Counted from the first letter of the stretch, positions 1,979 to 17,819 are shown. The stretch: DNA of 17,819 nt from Gemmatimonadota bacterium (GCA_031372565.1 JANMLN010000140.1:1-17819), one strand, 5' to 3'. Translations and numbers: made by a program. Notes: generated by a model not told the origin, from the sequence alone.

Positions 1979-2017
1979 ACCATGAAGATTCCGAATGACG
2001 CGCGGGTTCTTCATGGT
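1979..2017. terminator. Inverted repeat at the 3' end of fic, between convergent genes
   Basis: ACCATGAAGA (1979-1988) / TCTTCATGGT (2008-2017); no U-tract. Confidence 0.35.
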
Positions 2018-3219
2018 CAGTCGCGTCGGCGAGTCTTCCGCGTGGCGGTGGTCGGCGTCGCCAGCGGCAACTCCGCCTCGAGCAGCCGCACATACCGGTG
2101 ATAGCTGAACACCCGGCCGCGCGCCCGGTGCGTCAGCTCGCGCACGATGCCGAGTTCCTCCAGACGAGCGAGCGACTTGTTCACGGTGATGGCCGTGAGC
2201 CCCGTGCTCCGCACCAGCGCCGGCGAGGTGATGATCGGCTGGTGCTGCAGGGCATCGTGCACGCGCGCTGCCGCGGGGGCTGCTCGTCCCAGCGCCATCA
2301 GTCGCGCACGATCCTTCGTCACGAGCGCCAGGAGCGCCTGCGCCATGGCCACCGCTTGCGTCGCACTCGCCTCCACCCCCTCGGCGAAGAAGTCGAGCCA
2401 CCGCTCCCAGTCACCGTGGACCCGCACCTCCCCGAGCAGTTCGTAGTAGAGCGCACGGTGCGTCTTGAAGAAGAGACTGAGCATGAGCAGCGGCTCGCGC
2501 AACACGCCATCCGCCACGAGCTGCAACACGATGAGCAGTCGGCCCACGCGGCCGTTGCCGTCGAGGAACGGGTGAATGGTCTCGAACTGGACGTGCGCGA
2601 GCGCAGCCTTGAGCAGCGGCGAGATCGGCTCTGGCACGTCGTTCATGAAGCGTTCGAGGGCGGCGAGGCACACGGGCACTTCGCTGGCCGGCGGCGGCAC
2701 GAACACGGCATTGCCGGGGCGCGTCCCGCCGACCCACACCTGCGATCGCCGGAGCTCGCCGGGCGCCTTGTCCCGACCGCGCGGGTGGTCGAGGAGCACC
2801 GCATGCACCTCCCGCAGCAACCGATGACTCACCGGGATGCCTCGCCGCAGCAGCGCGAGCCCGTGGTCGAGCGCGGCCACTACGTGGCTGACCTCGCGCG
2901 CATCGTCAAGCGGCACCCCAGGCTGCTCGTCGATCTCGAACAACAGGAGGTCGGCGAGCGAAGACTGAGTGCCCTCGATCTGCGACGAGAGCACGGCCTC
3001 CTTTCGCACGAAGCTGTACAGCAGCAGCGCGGCGTTGGGCAGCATGCCCGATATCGCGTCGAGACGTCCGAGCGCGACGTGAGCGGCGTCAAAGCGCGCA
3101 CGCAGCGCCGGCGTCCAGCTGACGACGGGCGTGGGCGGCAGCGGCGCCGGCACGAACGCACGGAATTTCTCCCCGGGTGCCGAGACGCTGATGTAGTGGC
3201 CGGTGGGCGGACGACGCAT
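2017..3219 (-). CDS. fic: Fic-family protein (Fic_N + Fic + C-terminal wHTH), class II autoinhibited
   Basis: Canonical HPFLDGNGRVGR catalytic motif, N-terminal SSQIEG inhibitory motif, and C-terminal 'TGLTAITVNKSLARLEELGIVRELT' winged helix. Confidence 0.93.
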   Translation of the reverse strand: MRRPPTGHYISVSAPGEKFRAFVPAPLPPTPVVSWTPALRARFDAAHVALGRLDAISGMLPNAALLLYSFVRKEAVLSSQIEGTQSSLADLLLFEIDEQPGVPLDDAREVSHVVAALDHGLALLRRGIPVSHRLLREVHAVLLDHPRGRDKAPGELRRSQVWVGGTRPGNAVFVPPPASEVPVCLAALERFMNDVPEPISPLLKAALAHVQFETIHPFLDGNGRVGRLLIVLQLVADGVLREPLLMLSLFFKTHRALYYELLGEVRVHGDWERWLDFFAEGVEASATQAVAMAQALLALVTKDRARLMALGRAAPAAARVHDALQHQPIITSPALVRSTGLTAITVNKSLARLEELGIVRELTHRARGRVFSYHRYVRLLEAELPLATPTTATRKTRRRD

Positions 3220-4773: not shown

Positions 4774-4809
4774 GTACCGAAACTCCTGTTCCCCGCTATC
4801 TTTTCAGCC

Positions 4810-5031
4810 ATGATGGACTGGTCCTCCTGCGAAGCGGTCGAGCGCGACCCAGAGCGGTACAGCGGAGCCTGGGTGTTCCGCGGTACTCGCGTGCCGATCG
4901 CCGCCCTCTTCGAGAACCTCGAGGACGACGCCTCGGCTCACGACTTCGTCGGCTGGTTTCCTGGCGTCACGCTGGCGCAGGTACGGGCGGTACTCGAGCA
5001 TGCGGCGCGCAGCGGACTGAGCGCCGCGTAA
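4810..5031 (+). CDS. DUF433-family antitoxin
   Basis: DWSSCEAVERDPERYSGAWVFRGTRVPIAALFENLEDD...WFPGVT; TATCTT 7 nt upstream of the ATG suggests its own leaderless promoter. Confidence 0.9.
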   Translation: MMDWSSCEAVERDPERYSGAWVFRGTRVPIAALFENLEDDASAHDFVGWFPGVTLAQVRAVLEHAARSGLSAA

Positions 5032-5352
5032 GTGCGCGTCCTGTTCGATCAGGGCACGCCGGCGCCGCTGCGCCATGAGCTGCCGCTGCATTCGGTCGAG
5101 ACCGCCCATGAGCGCGGCTGGGCCACGACGCGCAACGGTGACCTCCTGCAGGCGGCCGAGGATGCGGGCTTCGACGTGCTGATCACCACCGATCAGAACC
5201 TGCAGTATCAGCAGAACTTGGCCGAACGGCGCATCGCCATCATCGTATTGAACACGACGAGCTGGCCTCGCATCCGCACGGCGTCGGCCGCGATCGCGGC
5301 TGCCGTGATCCAGTGTGCGACGAAGCGGTTCATCGAGATCAGCATCCCATGA
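5032..5352 (+). CDS. PIN-like toxin (DUF5615/VapC45-like)
   Basis: MRVLFDQGTPAPL...GW...NGDLLQAAEDAGFDVLITTDQNLQYQQNL; abuts the DUF433 gene. Confidence 0.88.
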   Translation: MRVLFDQGTPAPLRHELPLHSVETAHERGWATTRNGDLLQAAEDAGFDVLITTDQNLQYQQNLAERRIAIIVLNTTSWPRIRTASAAIAAAVIQCATKRFIEISIP

Positions 5353-5356
5353 GGAC

Positions 5357-5450
5357 GCCGAACAACGTGTTGCAGCTGACAAGCGATTCAACGAACGCTC
5401 GCTGCGCTCGCTCTCATTGATTCGCTTGCAACTGAACGCAAACGTTCGGC
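5357..5450 (+). mobile_element. Integron attC site (94 bp)
   Basis: R'' GCCGAAC (5357-5363), 6 nt, L'' TTGCAGCTGAC, stem AAGCGATTCAA...TTGATTCGCTT, L' GCAACTGAA, 7 nt, R' GTTCGGC (5444-5450). It has the expected unpaired extra bases and lies 4 bp after a stop codon. Confidence 0.88.
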
Positions 5451-5502
5451 GAGCCGTGATCCGCCTGCCCGGGATCGGATCCGCCCCCCGCTCACGCACC
5501 CC

Positions 5503-8500
5503 CTAAAACGCGTACCGCACCCCCAGCTGCACCTGGTACGGGTCGCCGCGCTTCGCCAGCACCCCCACGCTCTCGTTCACCGTATACGAGTAGCGCCGCG
5601 TCACCTGGTTGAAGCCCGTCACGTTGAGCAGCGGCAGCTGCTGCGAGATCGGGTTCGACGCCGAGATCCCCTGGGGCAACAGGTACTGGCCCCCCCAGTC
5701 GGGGTTGAGCAGGTTCGCGAAGTTGAACACGTCCACGAACAGCGTGGCCCGCTGCGCGGCGAGCGTCGTGAAGGCGCGCGACAGTCGCACGTCCACGCGG
5801 CCGTTCCATGGCGCGCGCGCACCATTGCGGGTAGCCATCCGTCCGAGATGTGCTGTCAGGTAGTCGCGCGCGACGCTGCCGCTGTTCGCCAGCAGCCGCC
5901 GCATCGACGCCGCGACGGCGGCCGGCGTCGCGGGGTCATCCGGATTCGGGATGAACGCGAGGTCGTTGCCTGAGTAGTCGTCGCCGTTGATGTCGCCGTT
6001 GACCACCAGCGAGAACGGCCGCCCCGAGCTCCCCACGTAGCGCCCGCCGAGCACGAACCCGGCCCAGGACGGCAGTTCGCCGTACACCACCACCTTGTGG
6101 GGCACGGCGACGTCCGAGGGCCCCCAGCTCCCGGTGAGGTCGCGCGGATCGCCCACCACCGGCGTGAAGAGCGAACTGGTGCGCGCGATGCAGCAGTTGA
6201 AGGTCGAGTTGTCCTCCGCTCGGCTCCAGGCATACGACGCGCGGACCGAGCCCCCGCGCGGCAGGGCGAGCGCTGCGTCGAGCACGAACGCTTGGCTGCG
6301 CGAGCGCCCCGTGTTCACCAGTTCGAGCACGTGCGTGAAGGCGGGGTTCACGAAGGCGAAGCGCGCCGTCGTCCGGCCGCTCGCCGCGATCGTGGCGGCC
6401 GGCACGAACACGGGGCGGCTCCCCTCGTTGTCGAGGGTGAACGCGGGCTGGGCAAGGTTGCGATCGGCGTACTGATAGTTCTCCCACGTCTCCGACGCGA
6501 GCAGCGTGGCCCCGAGGCGCAGGCGCTCGCCCACGCGGCGCGTCCAGCTCACGCTCCCCTTCCAGGTGAGCGGCGTGACGAACGACGCCGAGATGAGGTT
6601 CACGTAGGCGGGCGCCGTTGTACCGGCGGGCACGCCGGGGACCGCGGCGAGTGACCCCCGGTACGCCGCGAAGTTGGGCGCCGGCACGGCCGCCCCCTGC
6701 AGCGTCAGGTCGGCGAGTTGCGTGCCGTTGAAGAAGAGGTCGTTGGCGTGGAGGTAGTCGTGCGGCTGCGCCGCGAAGGCGCCCGCCCCCAGCTGCACCA
6801 CGTCGCGCCCATCGCCCCCCACGTCCCAGGTGAGCGAGACCCTCGGCAGCACCTTGCCCCAATCGGTCGGGGCCTCATCGGTGCGCAGGCCGCTGAACGC
6901 TGCCTCGACCGCCGTATTCCGCACCGCTGGCGTGCGATACTGCGTCACGTCCCAGCGAACACCGGCCTGCGCGCGCACACGCGAGAATGGCTGCCACTCC
7001 ACCTGCGCATACGCCCCCGCGTCGAGCACCCACTGCCGCGCGTACGTGGTGCCACCCAGCGGCACCTGCCGGCTGAACCGGGAGGGCCGGAGGTTGTCGA
7101 GGGCAAGCAGCGAATCGAACTGAAAGAGTCCGCCTTGGTCGGTCGGCACGTACGTCGAGAGCCAGGTGAGCGACTGATCGATTCCCGCCGTGATTACGGC
7201 ACTCCCGGCCTGCCAGGCGAGCGTGTTCGCCAGCTGGAACTGCCGCTCGCCGCTCTCCTCGGGGGAGAGCCGGTTGCCCCCGAACTGGAGCTGCACGTCG
7301 CCCGTGGTGCCGTCGGGGAGCGCCGAGCGCACGCGCACGAAGCCGCGCGGAATCGTGGTGTTGGGCACGAGGGTGCGTCCCCCCACGCTCACCCCCAGCT
7401 TGAGCTCGTTCTGCACGGTGGCGGCCAGCTGCGATCGGAGCGACACGAGGAACTGGTTGTCGCTCGACCGGCTGCTCGAACGCGATTCCAGCAGCGCGAC
7501 GAGTTGGTCGCCCACGCCGTCGTTCGGGCTGTCGGATGCCGTGAAGTTGTGGCGCACGGTGAGCAGGTGGCGGTCGGAGATCGCCCAGTCGAGCCGCGCG
7601 AACAGGGTCGTTGCCTGCGCGCTGCGATTGAACACCCCCACCTGCGGCGCGCTGCCCAGCCCATACTTGGCCTGCAGGATGTTGACGAATCGCACCAGCG
7701 AATCGCGTGCGAGCTGCGCCGCGGTCTCGTCCGCGCTGGTGCGGAGGTCCGCGATCGCGAGCGGCACGTTGGCGTCCTGCCGGTCGAGCGCCACGAAGTA
7801 GTGCAGCCTGTCGGGCACGATCGCCCCCCCGGCGCTCGCGCCATACTGCCACACGGTGCTCGGCCGCGCCGACCGGTCGCGCCCCTGGAAGTCCGAGGCC
7901 GCGCTCAGCTGCTCGTTGCGCAGGTAACCGAACGCGGAGGCCTCGCGTGCGTTGCTTCCCGCACGGGTGACGGCGAGGATCGCCCCGCCGCCTTGGCGCC
8001 CCTGCGTCACGTCGTAGACGTTCGTCGCCACCTCGAACTCGCGGATCGCCTCGAGCGAGAGGGTGTACGGCCCGCGCCCGAGCTCGCCGCCGCGGAGTCG
8101 GTTGCGAGCGGCGAGTCCGTCGATGCGGATGTCGGTGCTCGTGGCGCGAGCGCCGCCCAGCGAGAGGTCGGCGCCGGCGAGCGGCGCGAGCGCGGCCAGG
8201 TCGGTGAAGTTGCGGTTGGCGGCCGGCACGGTGGCGATGGTGCGCGCGCCAATGCGCGTTGTGCCGCCGTCGCGCTCGCGGGCGCTGTCACGGAGGGCCG
8301 CGCGGATAACCATGTCCTCGACCGCGACCGCGCGTTCCTCGAGCGTCAGGTCCACGCGAAGCCGCGCTCCGAGGGTGAGCATGAGGCCGTCGCGCTGGGC
8401 GGGCGCGAAGCCCAGGCGGCGAACCGTCACCGTGTACGGCCCGCCGAGCGGCAGGTCACCCAGCCGCCAGGCTCCCGAGGCGCCGGTGCGCGTGGTGATG

Positions 8501-8679
8501 GCGACGCCGGTTCCGCCATGGACGGCGCGCACCATCGCGTCGGCGATCGGGGTGCCATCGCCTCGCGCGACGCGTCCCTCGATGCTCGCGTCGGTGCCTT
8601 GGGCCGAGACGGCGGGCGCGAGAAGGAGGAAGAGCAGCGCGAGTCGCGCTGCGACGGAGATCGACGGGGGCGTCCGCAA
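5503..8679 (-). CDS. TonB-dependent receptor, Oar-like, with N-terminal carboxypeptidase-regulatory-like domain
   Basis: Signal peptide ending VSA-Q; GGPYTVTVRRLGF; plug motifs NRNFTDLAAL and AIREFEVATNVYDVTQGRQGGG; C-terminal QVQLGVRYAF; 1058 aa, TTG start. Confidence 0.92.
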   Translation of the reverse strand: MRTPPSISVAARLALLFLLLAPAVSAQGTDASIEGRVARGDGTPIADAMVRAVHGGTGVAITTRTGASGAWRLGDLPLGGPYTVTVRRLGFAPAQRDGLMLTLGARLRVDLTLEERAVAVEDMVIRAALRDSARERDGGTTRIGARTIATVPAANRNFTDLAALAPLAGADLSLGGARATSTDIRIDGLAARNRLRGGELGRGPYTLSLEAIREFEVATNVYDVTQGRQGGGAILAVTRAGSNAREASAFGYLRNEQLSAASDFQGRDRSARPSTVWQYGASAGGAIVPDRLHYFVALDRQDANVPLAIADLRTSADETAAQLARDSLVRFVNILQAKYGLGSAPQVGVFNRSAQATTLFARLDWAISDRHLLTVRHNFTASDSPNDGVGDQLVALLESRSSSRSSDNQFLVSLRSQLAATVQNELKLGVSVGGRTLVPNTTIPRGFVRVRSALPDGTTGDVQLQFGGNRLSPEESGERQFQLANTLAWQAGSAVITAGIDQSLTWLSTYVPTDQGGLFQFDSLLALDNLRPSRFSRQVPLGGTTYARQWVLDAGAYAQVEWQPFSRVRAQAGVRWDVTQYRTPAVRNTAVEAAFSGLRTDEAPTDWGKVLPRVSLTWDVGGDGRDVVQLGAGAFAAQPHDYLHANDLFFNGTQLADLTLQGAAVPAPNFAAYRGSLAAVPGVPAGTTAPAYVNLISASFVTPLTWKGSVSWTRRVGERLRLGATLLASETWENYQYADRNLAQPAFTLDNEGSRPVFVPAATIAASGRTTARFAFVNPAFTHVLELVNTGRSRSQAFVLDAALALPRGGSVRASYAWSRAEDNSTFNCCIARTSSLFTPVVGDPRDLTGSWGPSDVAVPHKVVVYGELPSWAGFVLGGRYVGSSGRPFSLVVNGDINGDDYSGNDLAFIPNPDDPATPAAVAASMRRLLANSGSVARDYLTAHLGRMATRNGARAPWNGRVDVRLSRAFTTLAAQRATLFVDVFNFANLLNPDWGGQYLLPQGISASNPISQQLPLLNVTGFNQVTRRYSYTVNESVGVLAKRGDPYQVQLGVRYAF

Positions 8680-8707
8680 GCAGGGCCAGTGGGTATTTGA
8701 GGCCCTA

Positions 8708-8752
8708 CAAGGTACACATTTAAGGCACTTAAGGGAATATAAAGTCCCTTGA
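8708..8752 (-). promoter_or_regulatory. AT-rich promoter/operator of the TonB receptor gene
   Basis: Inverted repeat AAGGGA-N8-TCCCTT (8731-8750); direct repeats CAAGG/TAAGG/TAAGG/TAAAG at 8708, 8721, 8730 and 8740. Confidence 0.55.
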
Positions 8753-8760
8753 ACGCCAGC

Positions 8761-9183
8761 TCAGGTCGACCCCGGCTCCCGCGCGATCATGATCTCCGTG
8801 CTCTTGATGACCGCCAGCACTTCCAGCCCCACCGCCAGGCGCAAGCGCTCAGCCGACGACCGCGTGATGATGGAGACCAGTTCCTGCCCACCGATCGCGA
8901 GCCGGACCTCGGCCATCACGCCATCGGCGACAATGGCGGTGATGCGCCCGCGCAGCCGGTTGCGCGCGCTGATCTCGAGCGCGCCATCGGCCGGGGCCTC
9001 GGAGGCGGGGTGAGCCCCGCCGCCCGATGGTCGCTGCGCCGCCATGAGCGCCCCCCGCGAGAACAGCCACTTCCGGCCGAAACGCACCGCGGGCAGCTCG
9101 CCCGAGCGGGCCAGATGCTGCACGCGCTTCACGTGCAGGTGCAGCAGCGTGGCGGCCTCCTGGGCGGTGATCAGGTCGTCCAT
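8761..9183 (-). CDS. Excisionase-type HTH (HTH_17) fused to a TOBE/Mop domain; putative molybdate/tungstate-sensing regulator
   Basis: N-terminal LITAQEAATLLHLH...GELPAVRFGRKWLF; C-terminal ISARNRLRGRITAI...GVMAEV...SIITRSSAERLRL...AVIKSTEIMI (Mop SARN, T-x-x-S and K-S/A ligand motifs). Confidence 0.9.
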   Translation of the reverse strand: MDDLITAQEAATLLHLHVKRVQHLARSGELPAVRFGRKWLFSRGALMAAQRPSGGGAHPASEAPADGALEISARNRLRGRITAIVADGVMAEVRLAIGGQELVSIITRSSAERLRLAVGLEVLAVIKSTEIMIAREPGST

Positions 9184-9216
9184 GCGGGGAAGTCTAGTCG
9201 CGCTACTTGTTGGCGG

Positions 9217-9897
9217 TCACGTCTCGTCGTCGGCCTTGGTCGCTCCTTCACCGACGACGTCGCGCATCAAGGCCTTCCAGCCGCCGAGCATCACGACGCC
9301 GATCGCGGTCATGATCCATGCGCCAAACCGCGACAACGTGGCCCATGTGGAGTACTGCTCCGCGTCGAGCGTCGCCTGCGCGGAGAGCGCCTTGAGCTCC
9401 TTGAAGAAATGCTCGCCGGCCGAGTCGAAGTGGGCCAGCACGACACTGTCCTGCTCGACGGTGGTTTCGGGGTTGCCGTATTCCGCGACAAGGAGGTTGG
9501 CCGCGGCGGTTGCACTGTCCCCCGCCTGATGCACCTTGGCCGATTCCGTATCATCGATGCCGAGCGCCTTCAGATGGGCGGTGAAGCCGGCGACGCGCTC
9601 CTTGAGCTCGGTGCCGGCCGAGTCGATCTCCGCTTCGAAGGCTGCGTCCTTATCGACGGGTGTGGCGACGTTGTTGACCTGGTGCTCCAGCTTGACCAAA
9701 CGGCTCAGGGTGGCGCGCTGGTCCCGCTCCTGCTGCTGGCGCGCCTCCTCGTCGTCGAGCGCCACCTGGATCTGCTGCGAGGCCGTGGACGCGCTCTCGA
9801 GCCCGACCGCGATCTGGTCGCGAAGGAGCCACGGGACCACGATGATCGCGATCCCGAGGAGACGTCGTCCCCTGCCACCTGGTGCGATGCCGGCCAT
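9217..9897 (-). CDS. Hypothetical membrane protein (two TM segments flanking an acidic helical domain)
   Basis: Hydrophobic LLGIAIIVVPWLL and FGAWIMTAIGVVMLGGW segments; GGGAG RBS; GC3-biased codons. Confidence 0.65.
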   Translation of the reverse strand: MAGIAPGGRGRRLLGIAIIVVPWLLRDQIAVGLESASTASQQIQVALDDEEARQQQERDQRATLSRLVKLEHQVNNVATPVDKDAAFEAEIDSAGTELKERVAGFTAHLKALGIDDTESAKVHQAGDSATAAANLLVAEYGNPETTVEQDSVVLAHFDSAGEHFFKELKALSAQATLDAEQYSTWATLSRFGAWIMTAIGVVMLGGWKALMRDVVGEGATKADDET

Positions 9898-12654: not shown

Positions 12655-13068
12655 CTACGTGCGCGCCGGAAACGGAGCGGCGACCTTCAGGCCGCTGACG
12701 GCACGGCGGAGCGCGGCGAACCCCTGATCGCGCGTCACAAGCGTCCAGCCAAACTCGCGCGCCTGACAGGCCAAGAGTGCATCGTTGAACCCGCTACCGC
12801 TCGCGGTCTCCCGAAGCTGAGCAGCGCGACGCCAGGCGCCATCGGTCGGCGCCAGCACGCGCCCGCGGCGATCGAAGGGGGACAGGAACAGCCGGTTCAG
12901 CACGTCGAGCGCCTTCCCGCTGCGGGTGCCGGCAATCAGCTCCGCCGCGACGACGCTCGATACGACGGTGGAGGGAAGCGCCCAGCTGAGGAACGCCTTC
13001 AAGCGATCGAGCTCGGCGGGTTGCCAGGCGGCGTCAATGAGGACGTTGCTGTCGAGGGTATAAATCAC
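12655..13068 (-). CDS. vapC: VapC PIN-domain toxin
   Basis: YTLDSNVLID...SSVVAAELIAG...NDALLACQAREFGWTLVTRDQGF with the acidic tetrad; the GTG start overlaps the antitoxin stop (GTGA). Confidence 0.9.
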   Translation of the reverse strand: MIYTLDSNVLIDAAWQPAELDRLKAFLSWALPSTVVSSVVAAELIAGTRSGKALDVLNRLFLSPFDRRGRVLAPTDGAWRRAAQLRETASGSGFNDALLACQAREFGWTLVTRDQGFAALRRAVSGLKVAAPFPART

Positions 13069-13277
13069 CCGCCATTGCGGGCAGGGGCGCCGAACGCGCC
13101 CACGGCCGCCAAGGCATCGAGGCCGCGGAAGACTTCCGTGCGGAAGACGACGAGGTCGAGGGCGGCGTCCACTGCTGCGGTTTCCGTGTGCGCGCCCAAC
13201 GCGGCCTTGGCCGCATCCAGCTTTCGCTGATCCATCAGCATGTTCTTGCGGCGGATCACCCCGCGAACTTTGGCCAT
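13065..13277 (-). CDS. vapB: VapB-type antitoxin (RHH-like)
   Basis: RRKNMLMDQRKLDAAKAALGAHTETAAVDAAL; translationally coupled upstream of the PIN toxin; GGAGAGAGG RBS. Confidence 0.85.
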   Translation of the reverse strand: MAKVRGVIRRKNMLMDQRKLDAAKAALGAHTETAAVDAALDLVVFRTEVFRGLDALAAVGAFGAPARNGG

Positions 13278-13598
13278 CCCTCTCTCCCGTTGGGTCTGCG
13301 CGGAAGGTAGCGCGACATACAGCTAGGAGCAATGTGGTGTCTGTATAACGCCGGATGACGCGCCAGTTGGCGTTCATTTAGGAGGACGAACTGAGTCGCG
13401 GCATGGACGGCGTGATGCGCTCGTTCGGCCCGCGGCCGCTCGCCAAGGAGCTGCGCCTGGACATCGCGTTCGTCAACCGCGACCGGTCGGCGGTCGGGCT
13501 CGGGATACCCTGGCTGGGGTTCAGCGCGAAGCGCGGGAGTGGCGGCGCCACGCCTCGCCGCCGCCCCACTCGCCCGATGGTCGGCGAGTTCACCACAC

Positions 13599-14667: not shown

Positions 14668-16101
14668 ATGCAACGCGCGTCTCCCCGTTTCGCTTTCGCG
14701 ATCGGCATCGCCACCGTGCTTGCGGCGTGCCAGAGTGGTGGCGTGCGTCGGCCGGCCGCCGACGCGATTGTGGCAGGCCGCGTGGACAGCACCTTCGTGG
14801 TGGACACGATCAACGACGGTACCGCCGTCGGCCTCAAGAGGGCGCACTGGAGTCTGCGGCAGCACAATGCCGAGGCGCGCGACTTCTGGACGGATGTGTC
14901 GGCACTCGATGTGCCGAACGCGGAGCAGAGTGCGCGCACGATGGATCAGCGTGCATTCGTTCTGGCGTTGCGAGAATTGATGGCGAGTGAACCGAAGAAG
15001 GCCGCCGTCGCATTTGTCGCCGCGCAGAGCAGCACAACCGATGCATTGGTCCGAGCGCGCGCGCGTATCGGTCTGACGGTGGCCCTCTCCTGGTACAGCG
15101 ACTGGCCAGCACTCGCGCGCATTGCGGTGGACCCGGATACCGCCGATGTGGCGGATTCGCTGACGACGCAGGCGAGCGTGGACCGGTGGGCGCGAGCGCT
15201 GGCAAGGTTTCCCGTGCCGGAGATCGACGTGCCGGACATTCCGGTCACCTTTCCGCTGCGCCGCAGCGCCTTCGGTACTCCGGTCATCACCGTGCGCATC
15301 AACGGGCGTTCGCACGAATTCTGGCTCGATACGGGCGCGAGCCTGACCGTACTCTCAGTGGACGTGGCACGCGACGCCGGTGTCCTCCTCGCCTCTCAGG
15401 ATCCCCTCGCGCTCGGTGTGGTGACGGGCCACATCCCTGCTCGAGCGGTGCTGATTGATTCCCTGGGGTTCGGGCCCGTCGTGGCACGCGGCATCAGTGC
15501 GGCGCTCGTCAATCCAGGTGAATTGCGGTTGGATCACCGCATCGTGAATGGATCGATGGAATCAATCAAGATCGACGGCGTGATCGGCACCGATCTCCTC
15601 AGGCACCTCGACCTCGTATTGGATGCCGAGGCGGGTACGATCACCGTCCGTCGCCCGCGCGCGGATGCTCGCGTGGCGAGAAACCTCTATTGGGTGGGCT
15701 ATCCGGTCGTTCGCCTCGTCACGGTCGATGGGAGCCCCGTGCTCCTTGGTCTGGACACCGGTGCCGAGGGCTCGTATGTCACCACGGGCCTCCTGCAAAA
15801 GCTGCCCCGCACGCCGGTGGCCATGCGTCGCCGCACGATCAGGGGATTGGGCGCCGAGGAGCTGAAGACGGAGTGGGTCGCCCGCGAGCTTTCGCTGAGC
15901 GATGGCGACTACGCGCTCACGCTGGAAAATGTGCCCGTCACGCCGGAGCGACGCTTCACCTTCGTCGTGCTTGATGGGGTGATCGGAAGTGACGTCGCGC
16001 TCTCCTCGCGCCTGCACCTGGACTTCCTGAACGGCGTATTCGATGTGCGTCCGAGTTCCAGTCTTCCGCTTGGCAAGGTCAAGGTGAAGGTGGGACACTG
16101 A
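14668..16101 (+). CDS. Lipoprotein with two retropepsin-like aspartyl protease domains
   Basis: Lipobox LAA-C; FWLDTGAS...DGVIGTD and LGLDTGAE...DGVIGSD. Confidence 0.88.
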   Translation: MQRASPRFAFAIGIATVLAACQSGGVRRPAADAIVAGRVDSTFVVDTINDGTAVGLKRAHWSLRQHNAEARDFWTDVSALDVPNAEQSARTMDQRAFVLALRELMASEPKKAAVAFVAAQSSTTDALVRARARIGLTVALSWYSDWPALARIAVDPDTADVADSLTTQASVDRWARALARFPVPEIDVPDIPVTFPLRRSAFGTPVITVRINGRSHEFWLDTGASLTVLSVDVARDAGVLLASQDPLALGVVTGHIPARAVLIDSLGFGPVVARGISAALVNPGELRLDHRIVNGSMESIKIDGVIGTDLLRHLDLVLDAEAGTITVRRPRADARVARNLYWVGYPVVRLVTVDGSPVLLGLDTGAEGSYVTTGLLQKLPRTPVAMRRRTIRGLGAEELKTEWVARELSLSDGDYALTLENVPVTPERRFTFVVLDGVIGSDVALSSRLHLDFLNGVFDVRPSSSLPLGKVKVKVGH

Positions 16102-16174: not shown

Positions 16175-17819
16175 TTACGGAACCACCCGCGTCTTCGGTG
16201 GCTCCTTCCCGACCGCTCCGATCCCGGCGTCCGACAGCTTCCGGTTGAGCGCCGGAATCTCTTCGTTGACGATGGCGTCAGACCGTGCCTTGAGCGCAGC
16301 CCACGCCTTGTCGAGTTCCGTCCGGCGCTCCTTCGCGGGCTGGTTCACCTGCGGCCGCTCACTCTCGGTCTGGTTGAGCAGGAAGATGTAGTGCGCGGTG
16401 AACTTCTGCGGGAAGTTCTCCACGTCGTCGTACACCTTCGTCCGGCGCTGGATCATCTCCTCATCCCACGCCTTGAGCTTGGCGAGGAGCGCTGTGCCGT
16501 CGCGCTTGAGGCCGGCGTATGCGGCGTCGGCCGGCAGCTCCGCGAGCACCGACGTGAGCCGTTCCTGCATCGGCAGCAGCTTGTTGACGGTCTCGTGCAT
16601 CTGCGTGAGCTCGCGCTCCATCGCGGACATGAAGGCATCGTACTCCGCGTAGCCGGCGGCATCCATCGCATAGAGCGGGTTGGCGAGGATCGCGGCCTCG
16701 GTCGTGACGGTCCGGCTTCCCAGCGTCAGGGTGAACCGATACGACCCCGGCGACGCCTTGTGTCCGCGGTAGTTCGCCTCCATGTGGACGCCGGGCACCC
16801 CCGGCATGGTCGCATGCCGGAGATCCCAGACGATCCGGTTGAGCCCCGTGGCGGTGGGGAGCACCGGGTCGGCCGGCGGGGCGCTGCCCCACGTCTTCAC
16901 GGTCGTGTCCTGCACTGACGAATAGCGCCGGACCAGCGTGCCCGCGGCGTCGCGGACCTCGAGGGTCACGCGCTCGGTCGTGTCGCGCTTCGGCAGCCGG
17001 TAGTACAGCACGATGCCGGTCGCCGGGTTGACCCCCCGGGTCAGGTCGGCACCAGTGAACGACTCATTCGACTGATCCAGTTCGCTGCCACTGTTCGTCA
17101 GCCACGCGTCCGCGGGCCGATAGAGCGCCAGGTCGGGACCATCGGCGCGATACTGCCGGAGCAGCGTCAGGTCGTCGAGCACCCAGAGCCCGCGGCCCGC
17201 AGTGGACGCGATCAGGTTGCCGCGATGGACACGCAAGTCGGTGATCGGCGTGACGGCCAGGTTGCGCTGGAACGGCGACCAGTCCTTCCCCCCGTTCCAG
17301 GAGATGTACAGCCCCAGCTCGGTGCCCGCGAAGAGCAGGTCGCGCCGCACGTCGTCTTCGCGGATCACTCGGGTGAACGCGTTCGGCGCGATCCCCGTGT
17401 TGATGCGCGTCCACGTCTGGCCGTAGTCGATGGTCTTGTAGAGCCCGGGCGTCTGATCGTTGAGCTTGTACCGCGTGGTCGCGATGTACGCCGTGCCCTT
17501 GTCGAACGGTGACACCTCGATCGCATTGATGAGGCACTCGGCGAGTCCCTTGGGCGTCACGTTCTTCCAGCTGACGCCGCCATCGCGCGTCAGGTGCACG
17601 AGTCCGTCGTCGCTCCCCGTCCAGATCACGCCGCGCTCGTGCGGCGACTCCACCACGTACGACAGGGTGCCGTAGTTCTCGGCGCCCACTCCTTCATTGG
17701 TGTAGGGGACGCCGGCCTTGCCCTGCTTCTCCTTCTCGTTCCGCGTCAAGTCGGGCGAGACTTCCGTCCACGACTTGCCCATGTCGGTCGTGTTGAGGAG
17801 GAGCTGGGCGCCGTGATAG
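16175..17819 (-). CDS. BNR/Asp-box (VPS10/YCF48-like) beta-propeller glycosyl-hydrolase-like protein, 3' part (partial)
   Basis: Asp-box repeats [42 protein letters not shown]; coiled-coil tail; the frame stays open to the window edge. Confidence 0.88.

Follow-up and report, generated by a model that had tools for sequence, protein, structure and literature searches.

The window analyzed here is a DNA stretch of 17,819 nucleotides from a Gemmatimonadota bacterium (GCA_031372565.1, JANMLN010000140.1:1-17819), which forms contig C89 of a 4.44-Mb, 95.85% complete assembly (genome G000); the sequencing runs containing this DNA carry the label freshwater sediment metagenome. Its central part holds a two-gene unit on the minus strand, in which the gene of a small regulator with a predicted oxyanion-binding domain (8761-9183) is followed by the gene of a large Oar-like TonB-dependent transporter (TBDT), hereafter the receptor (5503-8679). 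The two genes are separated by a spacer of 81 bp (8680-8760), provided that the receptor starts at a TTG codon. An initial annotation made from the sequence alone had reported a helix-turn-helix (HTH)/TOBE-Mop gene located 81 bp upstream of, and co-oriented with, an Oar-like TonB receptor, and the open reading frames (ORFs) and the Pfam and NCBIfam matches agree with this description. A 231-aa ORF following the receptor (4804-5499, minus strand) was considered as a third operon gene and rejected as an artefact, having no Pfam match and a DUF433 gene on the opposite strand; therefore, the unit consists of two genes. We examined this pair as a candidate system for the uptake of molybdenum or tungsten (Mo/W) across the outer membrane.

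The regulator (140 aa; 8761..9183, minus strand) comprises an N-terminal HTH_17 domain of the excisionase/MerR-like type, a Pro/Gly/Ala-rich linker and one C-terminal Mop/TOBE domain. The DNA-binding HTH_17 domain (residues 4-48; 9040..9174, minus strand) exceeds the cut-offs of both PF12728 (E 1.1e-11, 45.2 bits versus 27) and the 'excise' model TIGR01764 (E 1.5e-10, 41.3 bits versus 28.8). The Mop/TOBE domain (residues 70-136; 8776..8976, minus strand), which contains SARN and VIKSTE motifs, scores 78.5 bits with TIGR00638 (cut-off 55) and matches Pfam TOBE over residues 72-133 (E 1.9e-18). In alignments that span it entirely, this part of the protein matches two molybdate binders of known structure, ModG (1h9j, E 3e-16) and Mop II (1gug, E 1.7e-9), with the SARN and (V/I)K(S/A)T motifs kept, and it also scores against the C-termini of WtpC and ModC. 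Among 41 related genomes, full-length regulator orthologs were found in G001 (80% identity), G003 (72-82%), G039 (63%), G022 (52%) and G012. The HTH residues L13, L14, H15, V18, K19, R20 and V21 and the Mop residues S72, A73, R74, N75, K127, T129 and E130 are invariant in five orthologs. The ortholog from G003 (L023:2518-2985, minus strand) has a linker enlarged by a HANAA-type repeat insert of some 20 residues, with the reading frame intact. The regulator carries the sole TOBE domain found in the genome, in which the N-terminal domain of ModE (TIGR00637) has no match. Its combination of HTH_17 with one Mop domain, versus a winged-helix N-domain with two Mop domains in ModE, places it outside the ModE family; judging from its domains, it would nevertheless work like ModE. 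A TAGnAT-like hexamer is located 6-8 nt before the ATG codons of the regulator genes, leaving no room for a ribosome-binding site (9184-9216 in the window; L020, L023, L021 and L024 elsewhere), which suggests that the regulator mRNAs may be leaderless.

The receptor (1058 aa; 5503..8679, minus strand), a TBDT of the Oar-like type according to Pfam, begins with a signal peptide (residues 1-26; 8602..8679, minus strand), whose likely cleavage site is between ...APAVSA and QG. With this N-terminus (...LLFLLLAPAVSA followed by QG) and the C-terminal ...RYAF, the protein has both the signal peptide and the C-terminal aromatic residue characteristic of TBDTs; residue Q27 is invariant in 21 homologs. 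The mature protein starts with a CarboxypepD_reg extension (residues 32-114; 8338..8586, minus strand; PF13620, E 3.3e-18) that forms a beta sandwich in the AlphaFold2 model. It is followed by the sequence VAVEDMVIRA (residues 118-127; 8299..8328, minus strand), labeled TonB-box-like on the basis of what we take to be the TonB-box consensus, which lies in a disordered linker (pLDDT < 50 for residues 118-135) and aligns with the plug start of the solved TonB-linked receptor 9gbc. The remainder (residues about 136-1058; 5506..8274, minus strand) is assigned to a plug and a 22-strand-type barrel ending in ...RYAF, based on AlphaFold2 secondary structure, Foldseek and the OMP_b-brl_4 match (PF25183, E 3.8e-43, residues 355-992). 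A CarboxypepD_reg extension combined with an OMP_b-brl_4 barrel is the architecture of the Oar-like subfamily. The AlphaFold2 model, built from an alignment of 21 homologs, has a pLDDT of 83.5 and a pTM of 0.82. Its top Foldseek matches are all TBDTs, with YddB (6ofr, E 9.3e-44, TM 0.71 on the target) and FusA (4zgv, E 4.6e-42) in the lead, and at E <= 0.001 the matched TBDT chains number at least 500 and include the copper transporter OprC. A phmmer search against solved structures gave no direct match to the receptor. The model predicts that the receptor has the TBDT fold, with a plug in a barrel.

The spacer (8680..8760), which putatively holds the control region of the receptor gene, has a GC content of 49.4%, whereas the window as a whole reaches 67.9%; a value this low occurs in only 0.24% of 81-bp segments of the genome, which bears out the AT-richness pointed out in the initial annotation. 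Viewed on the plus strand, it contains two exact TAAGG words (8721-8725 and 8730-8734, spacing 9) and, found by eye, two degenerate copies, CAAGG (8708-8712) and TAAAG (8740-8744). On the coding strand these are four direct repeats, CTTTA (8744-8740), CCTTA (8734-8730), CCTTA (8725-8721) and CCTTG (8712-8708), with spacings of 10, 9 and 13, which we propose as a putative operator (8708..8744, minus strand). Directly after the last repeat, the hexamer TAGGGC (8702..8707, minus strand), also recognized by eye and replaced by TAGATT at the metagenome loci, may serve as the -10-like element of the receptor promoter; a scan of positions 5300-9400 found neither a consensus sigma-70 promoter nor an intrinsic terminator and so lends TAGGGC no support. 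A riboswitch or another RNA element in the spacer was rejected, as the region 8400-9400 has no Rfam match at E <= 1. The spacer also contains the palindrome mentioned in the initial annotation (AAGGGA-N8-TCCCTT, with 13-nt arms that are 77% complementary); because the congeners G001 and G003 have not kept the left arm in their spacers, this palindrome is probably not the operator.

G001 and G003 share two conserved spacer blocks with this genome, TATATTCCCTTAA(G/A)TG and GTACnTT(G/A)TAGGG. The spacers of the five metagenome gene pairs (L153-L159) have two or three tandem GTTCCCTAAC-like units with TAGATT about 20 bp later, and three perfect 10-bp repeats follow the regulator ortholog in G022. 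A repeat-finding tool applied to seven spacers picked up 10-bp copies in tandem for L157 and G022, a pair 18 bp apart for L159 and nothing for L153, L154, L155 and L162; given this uneven outcome, we used a self-similarity test. Over eight regulator-receptor spacers, self-similarity peaks at a shift of 10 (sum of 134 versus 89 +/- 5.1 in shuffled sequences, z 8.8) and was not reached in any of 300 shuffles, although the loci are related and the test thus overstates the significance. Even so, the view that repeats with a period of about 10 bp are a property of the family rather than chance stands. As to the periodic TAAGG repeats proposed in the initial annotation, the periodicity held across the spacers, but only two copies of the word are exact and TAAGG is not enriched in the window (3 observed versus 5.0 expected).

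The genomic context of the regulator family was assessed by scanning metagenome contigs with an alignment of five orthologs, which yielded 80 loci with 64 full-length homologs, including 55 with at least 300 bp of downstream sequence. In these 55 loci the first co-oriented downstream gene is modA (39 loci), the receptor gene (5), modB (3), the gene of a mod-linked 287-aa unknown protein (3) or wtpA (1), and none was recognized in the remaining four. With 46 of 55 homologs preceding modA, modB, wtpA or the mod-linked gene, the statement of the initial annotation that Mop/TOBE regulators usually flank modABC applies to this family as well. For example, in G039 the regulator ortholog heads modB/modC together with ModA (TIGR01256, 136 bits versus a cut-off of 62.5), ModB (TIGR02141, 215 bits) and a Porin_O_P gene, and in the short metagenome locus L165 a regulator homolog runs straight into a MOT1 homolog. 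A divergently transcribed Porin_O_P gene is located upstream of the regulator in 23 of the 64 loci, or in 21 of the 44 for which 600 bp or more of upstream sequence is available, a count that is the same without the G012 query; in G012 itself, the ortholog precedes a weak Porin_O_P-like gene, a single-genome case that the argument does not need. By its context, this family is predicted to regulate Mo/W uptake, and an outer-membrane channel often appears to be part of its regulon. The 287-aa protein is secreted, belongs to no family and follows the regulator behind tandem 10-bp repeats (L024:7203-8066 in G022; also L151, L152 and L162). On two contigs, modB and modC come next, with wtpA in addition in L152, which makes the protein a component of Mo/W uptake loci.

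The genome encodes MoeA and has eight molybdoenzyme-type matches (five to PF00384 and three to PF02738), a gene set that points to a need for Mo; MoeA was likewise found in all five other receptor-bearing genomes that were checked. The initial annotation had noted that the window lacks modABC, and a search of the entire assembly (95.85% complete) did not find it either: ModA has no TIGR01256 match and no tblastn match with the G039 protein, and WtpA has no match with the WtpA of G007. A weak ModB match proved to be PstC. SBP_bac_11 has only two matches, a PstS-like and a PhnS-like protein, with a PstS-PstC-PstA locus present elsewhere in the genome. The only Mo importer of a known type found in the genome is a MOT1-type permease encoded outside the window (G000:C4:12501-13664, minus strand; PF16983, 169.1 bits, with two MFS_MOT1 repeats over the cut-off). 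Among the 41 relatives, ModA exceeds its cut-off in five and MOT1 is present in eight (among them G000 and all but one of its five congeners), whereas WtpA-like binding proteins, the commonest Mo/W type in the order, occur in 16.

These distributions bear on whether the unit might serve another TOBE/Mop-compatible oxyanion (sulfate, vanadate, or tungstate only), with Mo not being the physiological ligand. Tungstate is covered by a Mo/W function, so that only anions other than these two count for this alternative. It can draw on the prevalence of WtpA-like proteins in the order and on the scores of the Mop domain against both WtpC and ModC, and sequence cannot separate Mo from W. Nevertheless, the many Mo-type enzymes and MoeA of this genome, the usual partnership of the regulator family with ModA (over the cut-off in G039) and the presence of MOT1, a molybdate-transporter family, render it very improbable.

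The adjacency of the regulator and the receptor is conserved. Within the genus, the pair occurs in three of six genomes, namely G000, G001 (at a contig end, with 60% identity over 163 aa) and G003 (73%), and it was also found on five metagenome contigs (L153, L154, L155, L157 and L159) with receptor identities of 44-62%. In a phylum-wide sample, with two candidates scored per genome, 15 of 401 genomes have a receptor match at E <= 1e-180. We examined 20 receptor loci with at least 42% identity, two of which came from a separate scan of relatives, leaving out two further copies from G023. An HTH_17-Mop gene is located within 1.5 kb of the receptor in two of these loci and a gene with a ModE-type N-domain (ModE-N) in six, the other 12 having neither. 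The receptors linked to ModE-N regulators (45-53% identity) have the regulator gene co-oriented in G011, G015 and G247 and divergent in G279, G368 and G174. These regulators are unrelated to the HTH_17-Mop type and give the receptor clade an independent tie to a second Mo-type regulator. The ModE-N regulators match TIGR00637 with E values of 3.6e-25 and 7.5e-24, below the curated cut-off. All three co-oriented spacers carry CGATATATAC-N5/6-GGTACATCG, which resembles the E. coli ModE box, ATCGNTATATA-N6-TATATANCGAT as given in the available part of Rodionov et al. (PMC545781). In G007, the gene after an ortholog of the ModE-N regulator is WtpA-like (NF003196, E 6.3e-63) and is preceded by the near-perfect box ATCGATATATT-CAGGCG-AATATATCGAT. 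In G011, an inner-membrane Mo transporter was not recognized.

Two further loci with regulators of this type were noted. In G006, a 399-aa secreted protein without a family match (L129:1840-3039, plus strand) starts 13 bp after a ModE-N-only regulator that is 66% identical to the one from G011, and it is possibly under Mo-type control. In G022, the gene of a distant Oar-like paralog (27% identity; L147 on G022:C5, 6548-10860, minus strand) overlaps the start of a WtpA-like gene by 4 nt, with a ModE-N-like gene convergent; this arrangement is a second, independent link between a receptor and Mo/W. An Oar-like receptor beside WtpA as a general pattern was rejected, since it was seen only in G022 and is absent at ten other WtpA loci with 1.5-kb flanks.

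The receptor phylogeny was built from 58 sequences; three partial sequences shorter than 1000 aa were dropped, the 811-aa sequence from G003 was kept, and paralogs below 37% identity were dropped except for eight that served as an outgroup. In the FastTree phylogeny of these 58 rows, all regulator-linked receptors fall into one clade of ten rows with a support of 100 (two with HTH_17-Mop, six with ModE-N and two with no regulator), its sister group comprises seven rows without a marker, and all 28 rows linked to phosphoesterase genes lie outside. The same clade was recovered by IQ-TREE from 34 rows (SH-aLRT 100), again with the phosphoesterase-linked receptors outside it. After addition of L153 and L155, the HTH_17-Mop-linked receptors form a subclade of four rows (support 100) inside a clade of 12 (support 100), ten of which have an adjacent Mo-type regulator (four HTH_17-Mop and six ModE-N). 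The HTH_17-Mop label is confined to one branch with a support of 100, and none of 500 label shuffles gave a value as low. The residues that differ between the receptors of this clade and those linked to phosphoesterases include R272/Q, H645/V and R833/N, among others; these differences carry no weight in the argument.

This clustering speaks to the concern that the adjacency may have no functional meaning, the regulator controlling itself or something else and the receptor being one of many Oar-like transporters of peptides, proteins or glycans. Oar-like paralogs are indeed numerous in Gemmatimonadota (35 of 41 relatives have matches at E <= 1e-60, often several each), and the top fold matches, YddB and FusA, are protease-associated importers. 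Against this, the adjacency persists across eight loci (56-73% receptor identity) with a conserved periodic spacer, a second regulator type, ModE-N, marks the sister subclade, and the HTH_17-Mop label is restricted to its single branch; we consider a meaningless adjacency to be as poor a candidate explanation as a ligand other than Mo/W.

A number of observations weigh against a role of the pair in Mo/W uptake. The Pfam Plug model was not reported for the receptor at E <= 0.01, and in the PDB a profile of 21 homologs matched only the N-terminus of two TonB-linked receptors. Within the genus, the pair was not found in G002 and G004 (each 85% complete) or in G005 (93% complete). No regulator was seen within 1.5 kb for two of the 12 clade members, and the related loci are not independent, amounting to about four distinct arrangements rather than twelve. 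The repeats of G000 are degenerate, the third one is not conserved in G001 or G003, and no second operator-like site was found in the genome, including upstream of MOT1; this search used a 10-mer with at most one mismatch, an 18-mer with at most four and a triple CCTT[ACG], and only the site in the window was convincing. The same repeat word was not found upstream of the regulator-modABC operons (22 loci, at most two mismatches). None of the five genomes with a ModE-N-only regulator beside the receptor has any TOBE domain, and therefore a response of these regulators to Mo is only presumed; how such regulators sense the metal was already flagged as a puzzle for Desulfovibrio, to judge from the available part of Rodionov et al. 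(PMC545781). Finally, in a scan of genome contigs, only one of 34 receptor loci has a Mo-type gene (of the regulator type), and the other 33, mostly from Hymenobacter, Pedobacter and Cytophagales (39-46% identity), have no Mo-related gene. In 25 of these 33 loci, the receptor homolog (39-48% identity) is followed by genes of an NPP-type phosphodiesterase, a PLC-type phosphoesterase or a 5'-nucleotidase, and three Gemmatimonadota loci (L066, L071 and L076) also have phosphoesterase genes next.

The receptor may therefore still import a phosphorus compound, such as a phosphate ester or polyphosphate, with the Mo-type regulators adding cross-regulation or answering phosphate-like anions. Such a function would suit the closest outgroup receptors with their phosphoesterase genes, the co-existence of NPP-linked and ModE-N-linked copies in G279, and the lack of a Mop domain in the ModE-N-only genomes. 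In addition, a TBDT of Flavobacterium johnsoniae with only pf13620, Fjoh_3841, is induced by phosphate depletion according to the accessible portion of PMC8115612, the likeness being one of annotation. However, none of the 12 clade members has an NPP, PLC or 5'-nucleotidase match beside it in the DNA covered, and downstream of the window receptor lies the convergent DUF433 pair. The genes that accompany the regulator family are mod, wtp and MOT1 genes and not pst or pho genes, its Mop motifs are those of solved molybdate binders, and phosphate has its separate PstS-PstC-PstA locus in this genome. Since G279 holds one ModE-N-linked and one NPP-linked receptor, the phosphatase association belongs to the wider receptor family and the association with Mo regulators to a derived Gemmatimonadota clade. 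We judge import of a phosphorus compound to be unlikely, while giving it more weight than either of the two alternatives above. The initial annotation had itself named lost adjacency and clustering of receptor homologs with phosphatases as signs against its proposal; the adjacency turned out to be conserved (three genomes and five contigs), and the phosphatase clustering is real but concerns distant homologs outside the regulator-linked clade.

We therefore favor, as the probable function of the regulator-receptor pair, a Mo/W-repressed, TonB-energized uptake step at the outer membrane, derived from phosphate-scavenging receptors and compatible with more than one form of the substrate. The regulator would sense cytoplasmic molybdate or tungstate through its one Mop domain. 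Because the oxyanion sits between subunits in domains of this type, ligand loading should favor regulator oligomers. The HTH_17 domains of such oligomers would then occupy the direct repeats, spaced by about 10 bp and running up to the -10-like element, and would shut off receptor synthesis, acting by repression rather than activation. When Mo/W is scarce, the repeat sites would be free and the receptor would be made, and TonB-derived energy would concentrate Mo/W into the periplasm. From there, the MOT1-type permease would carry molybdate across the inner membrane, a partnership proposed because neither ModABC nor WtpABC was found in the genome. In this scheme the receptor would hold the place that an anion porin has in related regulons.

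As to the substrate, a free oxyanion is our tentative first choice and a Mo/W complex a somewhat weaker candidate. The receptor clade seems to have arisen within a phosphoesterase-linked family, which fits a shift from a phosphate-bearing substrate to a look-alike tetrahedral oxyanion. This origin parallels the phosphate-type porins beside modABC and suggests that a tetrahedral oxyanion is recognized. In its boldest form, the proposal would make the receptor the first TBDT for a free oxyanion, a descendant of phosphate scavengers turned to the capture of molybdate or tungstate on the cell surface. Together with MOT1, it would provide a complete Mo route across both membranes that is free of ATP-binding cassette (ABC) transporters; we regard this version as doubtful. 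The initial annotation had proposed import of a Mo/W chelate, cofactor or oxyanion. The neighborhoods, the conserved adjacency, the ModE-N link and the use of Mo in a genome where no mod or wtp transporter was found lend that proposal partial support.

The other genes of the window offer no hint of this function. A DUF433 gene (4810-5031, plus strand; E 1.3e-12) is convergent on the receptor stop codon and abuts a 106-aa ORF without a Pfam match (5032-5352, plus strand); the two look like a small toxin-antitoxin-like pair. The upstream neighbor of the regulator is a membrane-anchored protein without an informative family (9217-9897). More distant genes encode a Fic_N-Fic-HTH_24 protein (2017-3219, minus strand), a PIN-domain protein (12655-13377, minus strand), a protein with a retropepsin-like aspartyl protease domain (14668-16101, plus strand) and, truncated where the window stops, a sortilin/Vps10-like repeat protein (16175-17818, minus strand), none of which is related to metal uptake.

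The pair suggests that a Mo-using bacterium without a standard molybdate pump may import Mo/W actively across the outer membrane instead of relying on diffusion. Molybdate is thought to cross this membrane via porins, as stated in the available part of a review (PMC8264917). According to Table 3 of a survey (PMC6147048), 278 of 3683 Mo-using bacteria have no known transporter; the accessible part of the survey is silent on the outer membrane. We found no description of a TonB-dependent molybdate or tungstate transporter in the literature, most subscription journals being outside the coverage of the search. If the proposed function is true, an ABC-free Mo route would explain how some of the Mo-using bacteria that have no known transporter obtain the metal, and an energized, Mo/W-regulated outer-membrane step would change models of trace Mo/W acquisition in Mo-poor waters and soils. 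An oxyanion would join the known substrates of TonB-dependent transport, and the receptor lineage would provide a worked case of switching between look-alike anions. The idea is testable, given the small regulator, the 40-bp putative operator and the complete genomes available for the ModE-N-linked relatives.

Among known systems, the unit is most readily compared with ModE-modABC of E. coli. Both would rely on Mop/TOBE domains for molybdate sensing (predicted here) and control uptake genes via a promoter site; the homologs of the regulator usually head modABC, and in the sister subclade of the receptor both the N-domains of the regulators and their boxes are of the ModE kind. The differences are an HTH_17 domain where ModE has a winged helix, a single Mop domain rather than a pair, sites made up of direct repeats rather than a palindrome, and an outer-membrane TBDT as the target in a genome where no modABC was found. 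An HTH_17 domain in a W/Mo-sensing regulator is also known from the tungsten regulators TaoR and TaoR-like proteins; as described in the available part of PMC11980592, TaoR combines HTH_17 with a domain resembling periplasmic binding proteins, with or without TOBE, and controls aldehyde oxidoreductase, whereas the regulator studied here has no such binding-protein-like domain and precedes an uptake gene. These TaoR-like architectures were the only ones found when the literature was searched for an HTH_17-Mop regulator, with most subscription journals outside its coverage.

On the transporter side, OprC and ZnuD are metal-regulated TBDTs for scarce metals, and both share the fold of the receptor as well as the logic proposed here, in which a metal-sensing repressor frees an energized outer-membrane importer at scarcity. 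Transporters of this type carry cations or metallophores under control of the Fur/Zur/CueR type, unlike the receptor with its link to an oxyanion sensor and its Oar-type CarboxypepD_reg extension. Oar of Myxococcus xanthus, from which the subfamily takes its name, has the same order of a CarboxypepD_reg domain and a large TonB-type barrel, a likeness of architecture, and its reported role is in protein export or development rather than in metal uptake. The TBDTs that accompany periplasmic phosphoesterases under phosphate starvation in Bacteroidota, described in the accessible portion of Lidbury et al. 2020 (PMC8115612), are comparable to the closest relatives of the receptor (39-48% identity, same architecture), which precede NPP, PLC and 5'-nucleotidase genes; however, those relatives fall outside the regulator-linked clade and have no Mo-type regulator, and the locus reported here has no phosphoesterase. 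Finally, the OprP/OprO anion porins (Porin_O_P) beside modABC occupy the corresponding outer-membrane position beside regulators of this family (23 of 64 loci, and G039) and likewise represent a phosphate-type family in a molybdate context, but a porin works by passive diffusion, whereas the receptor is predicted to be an energized transporter.

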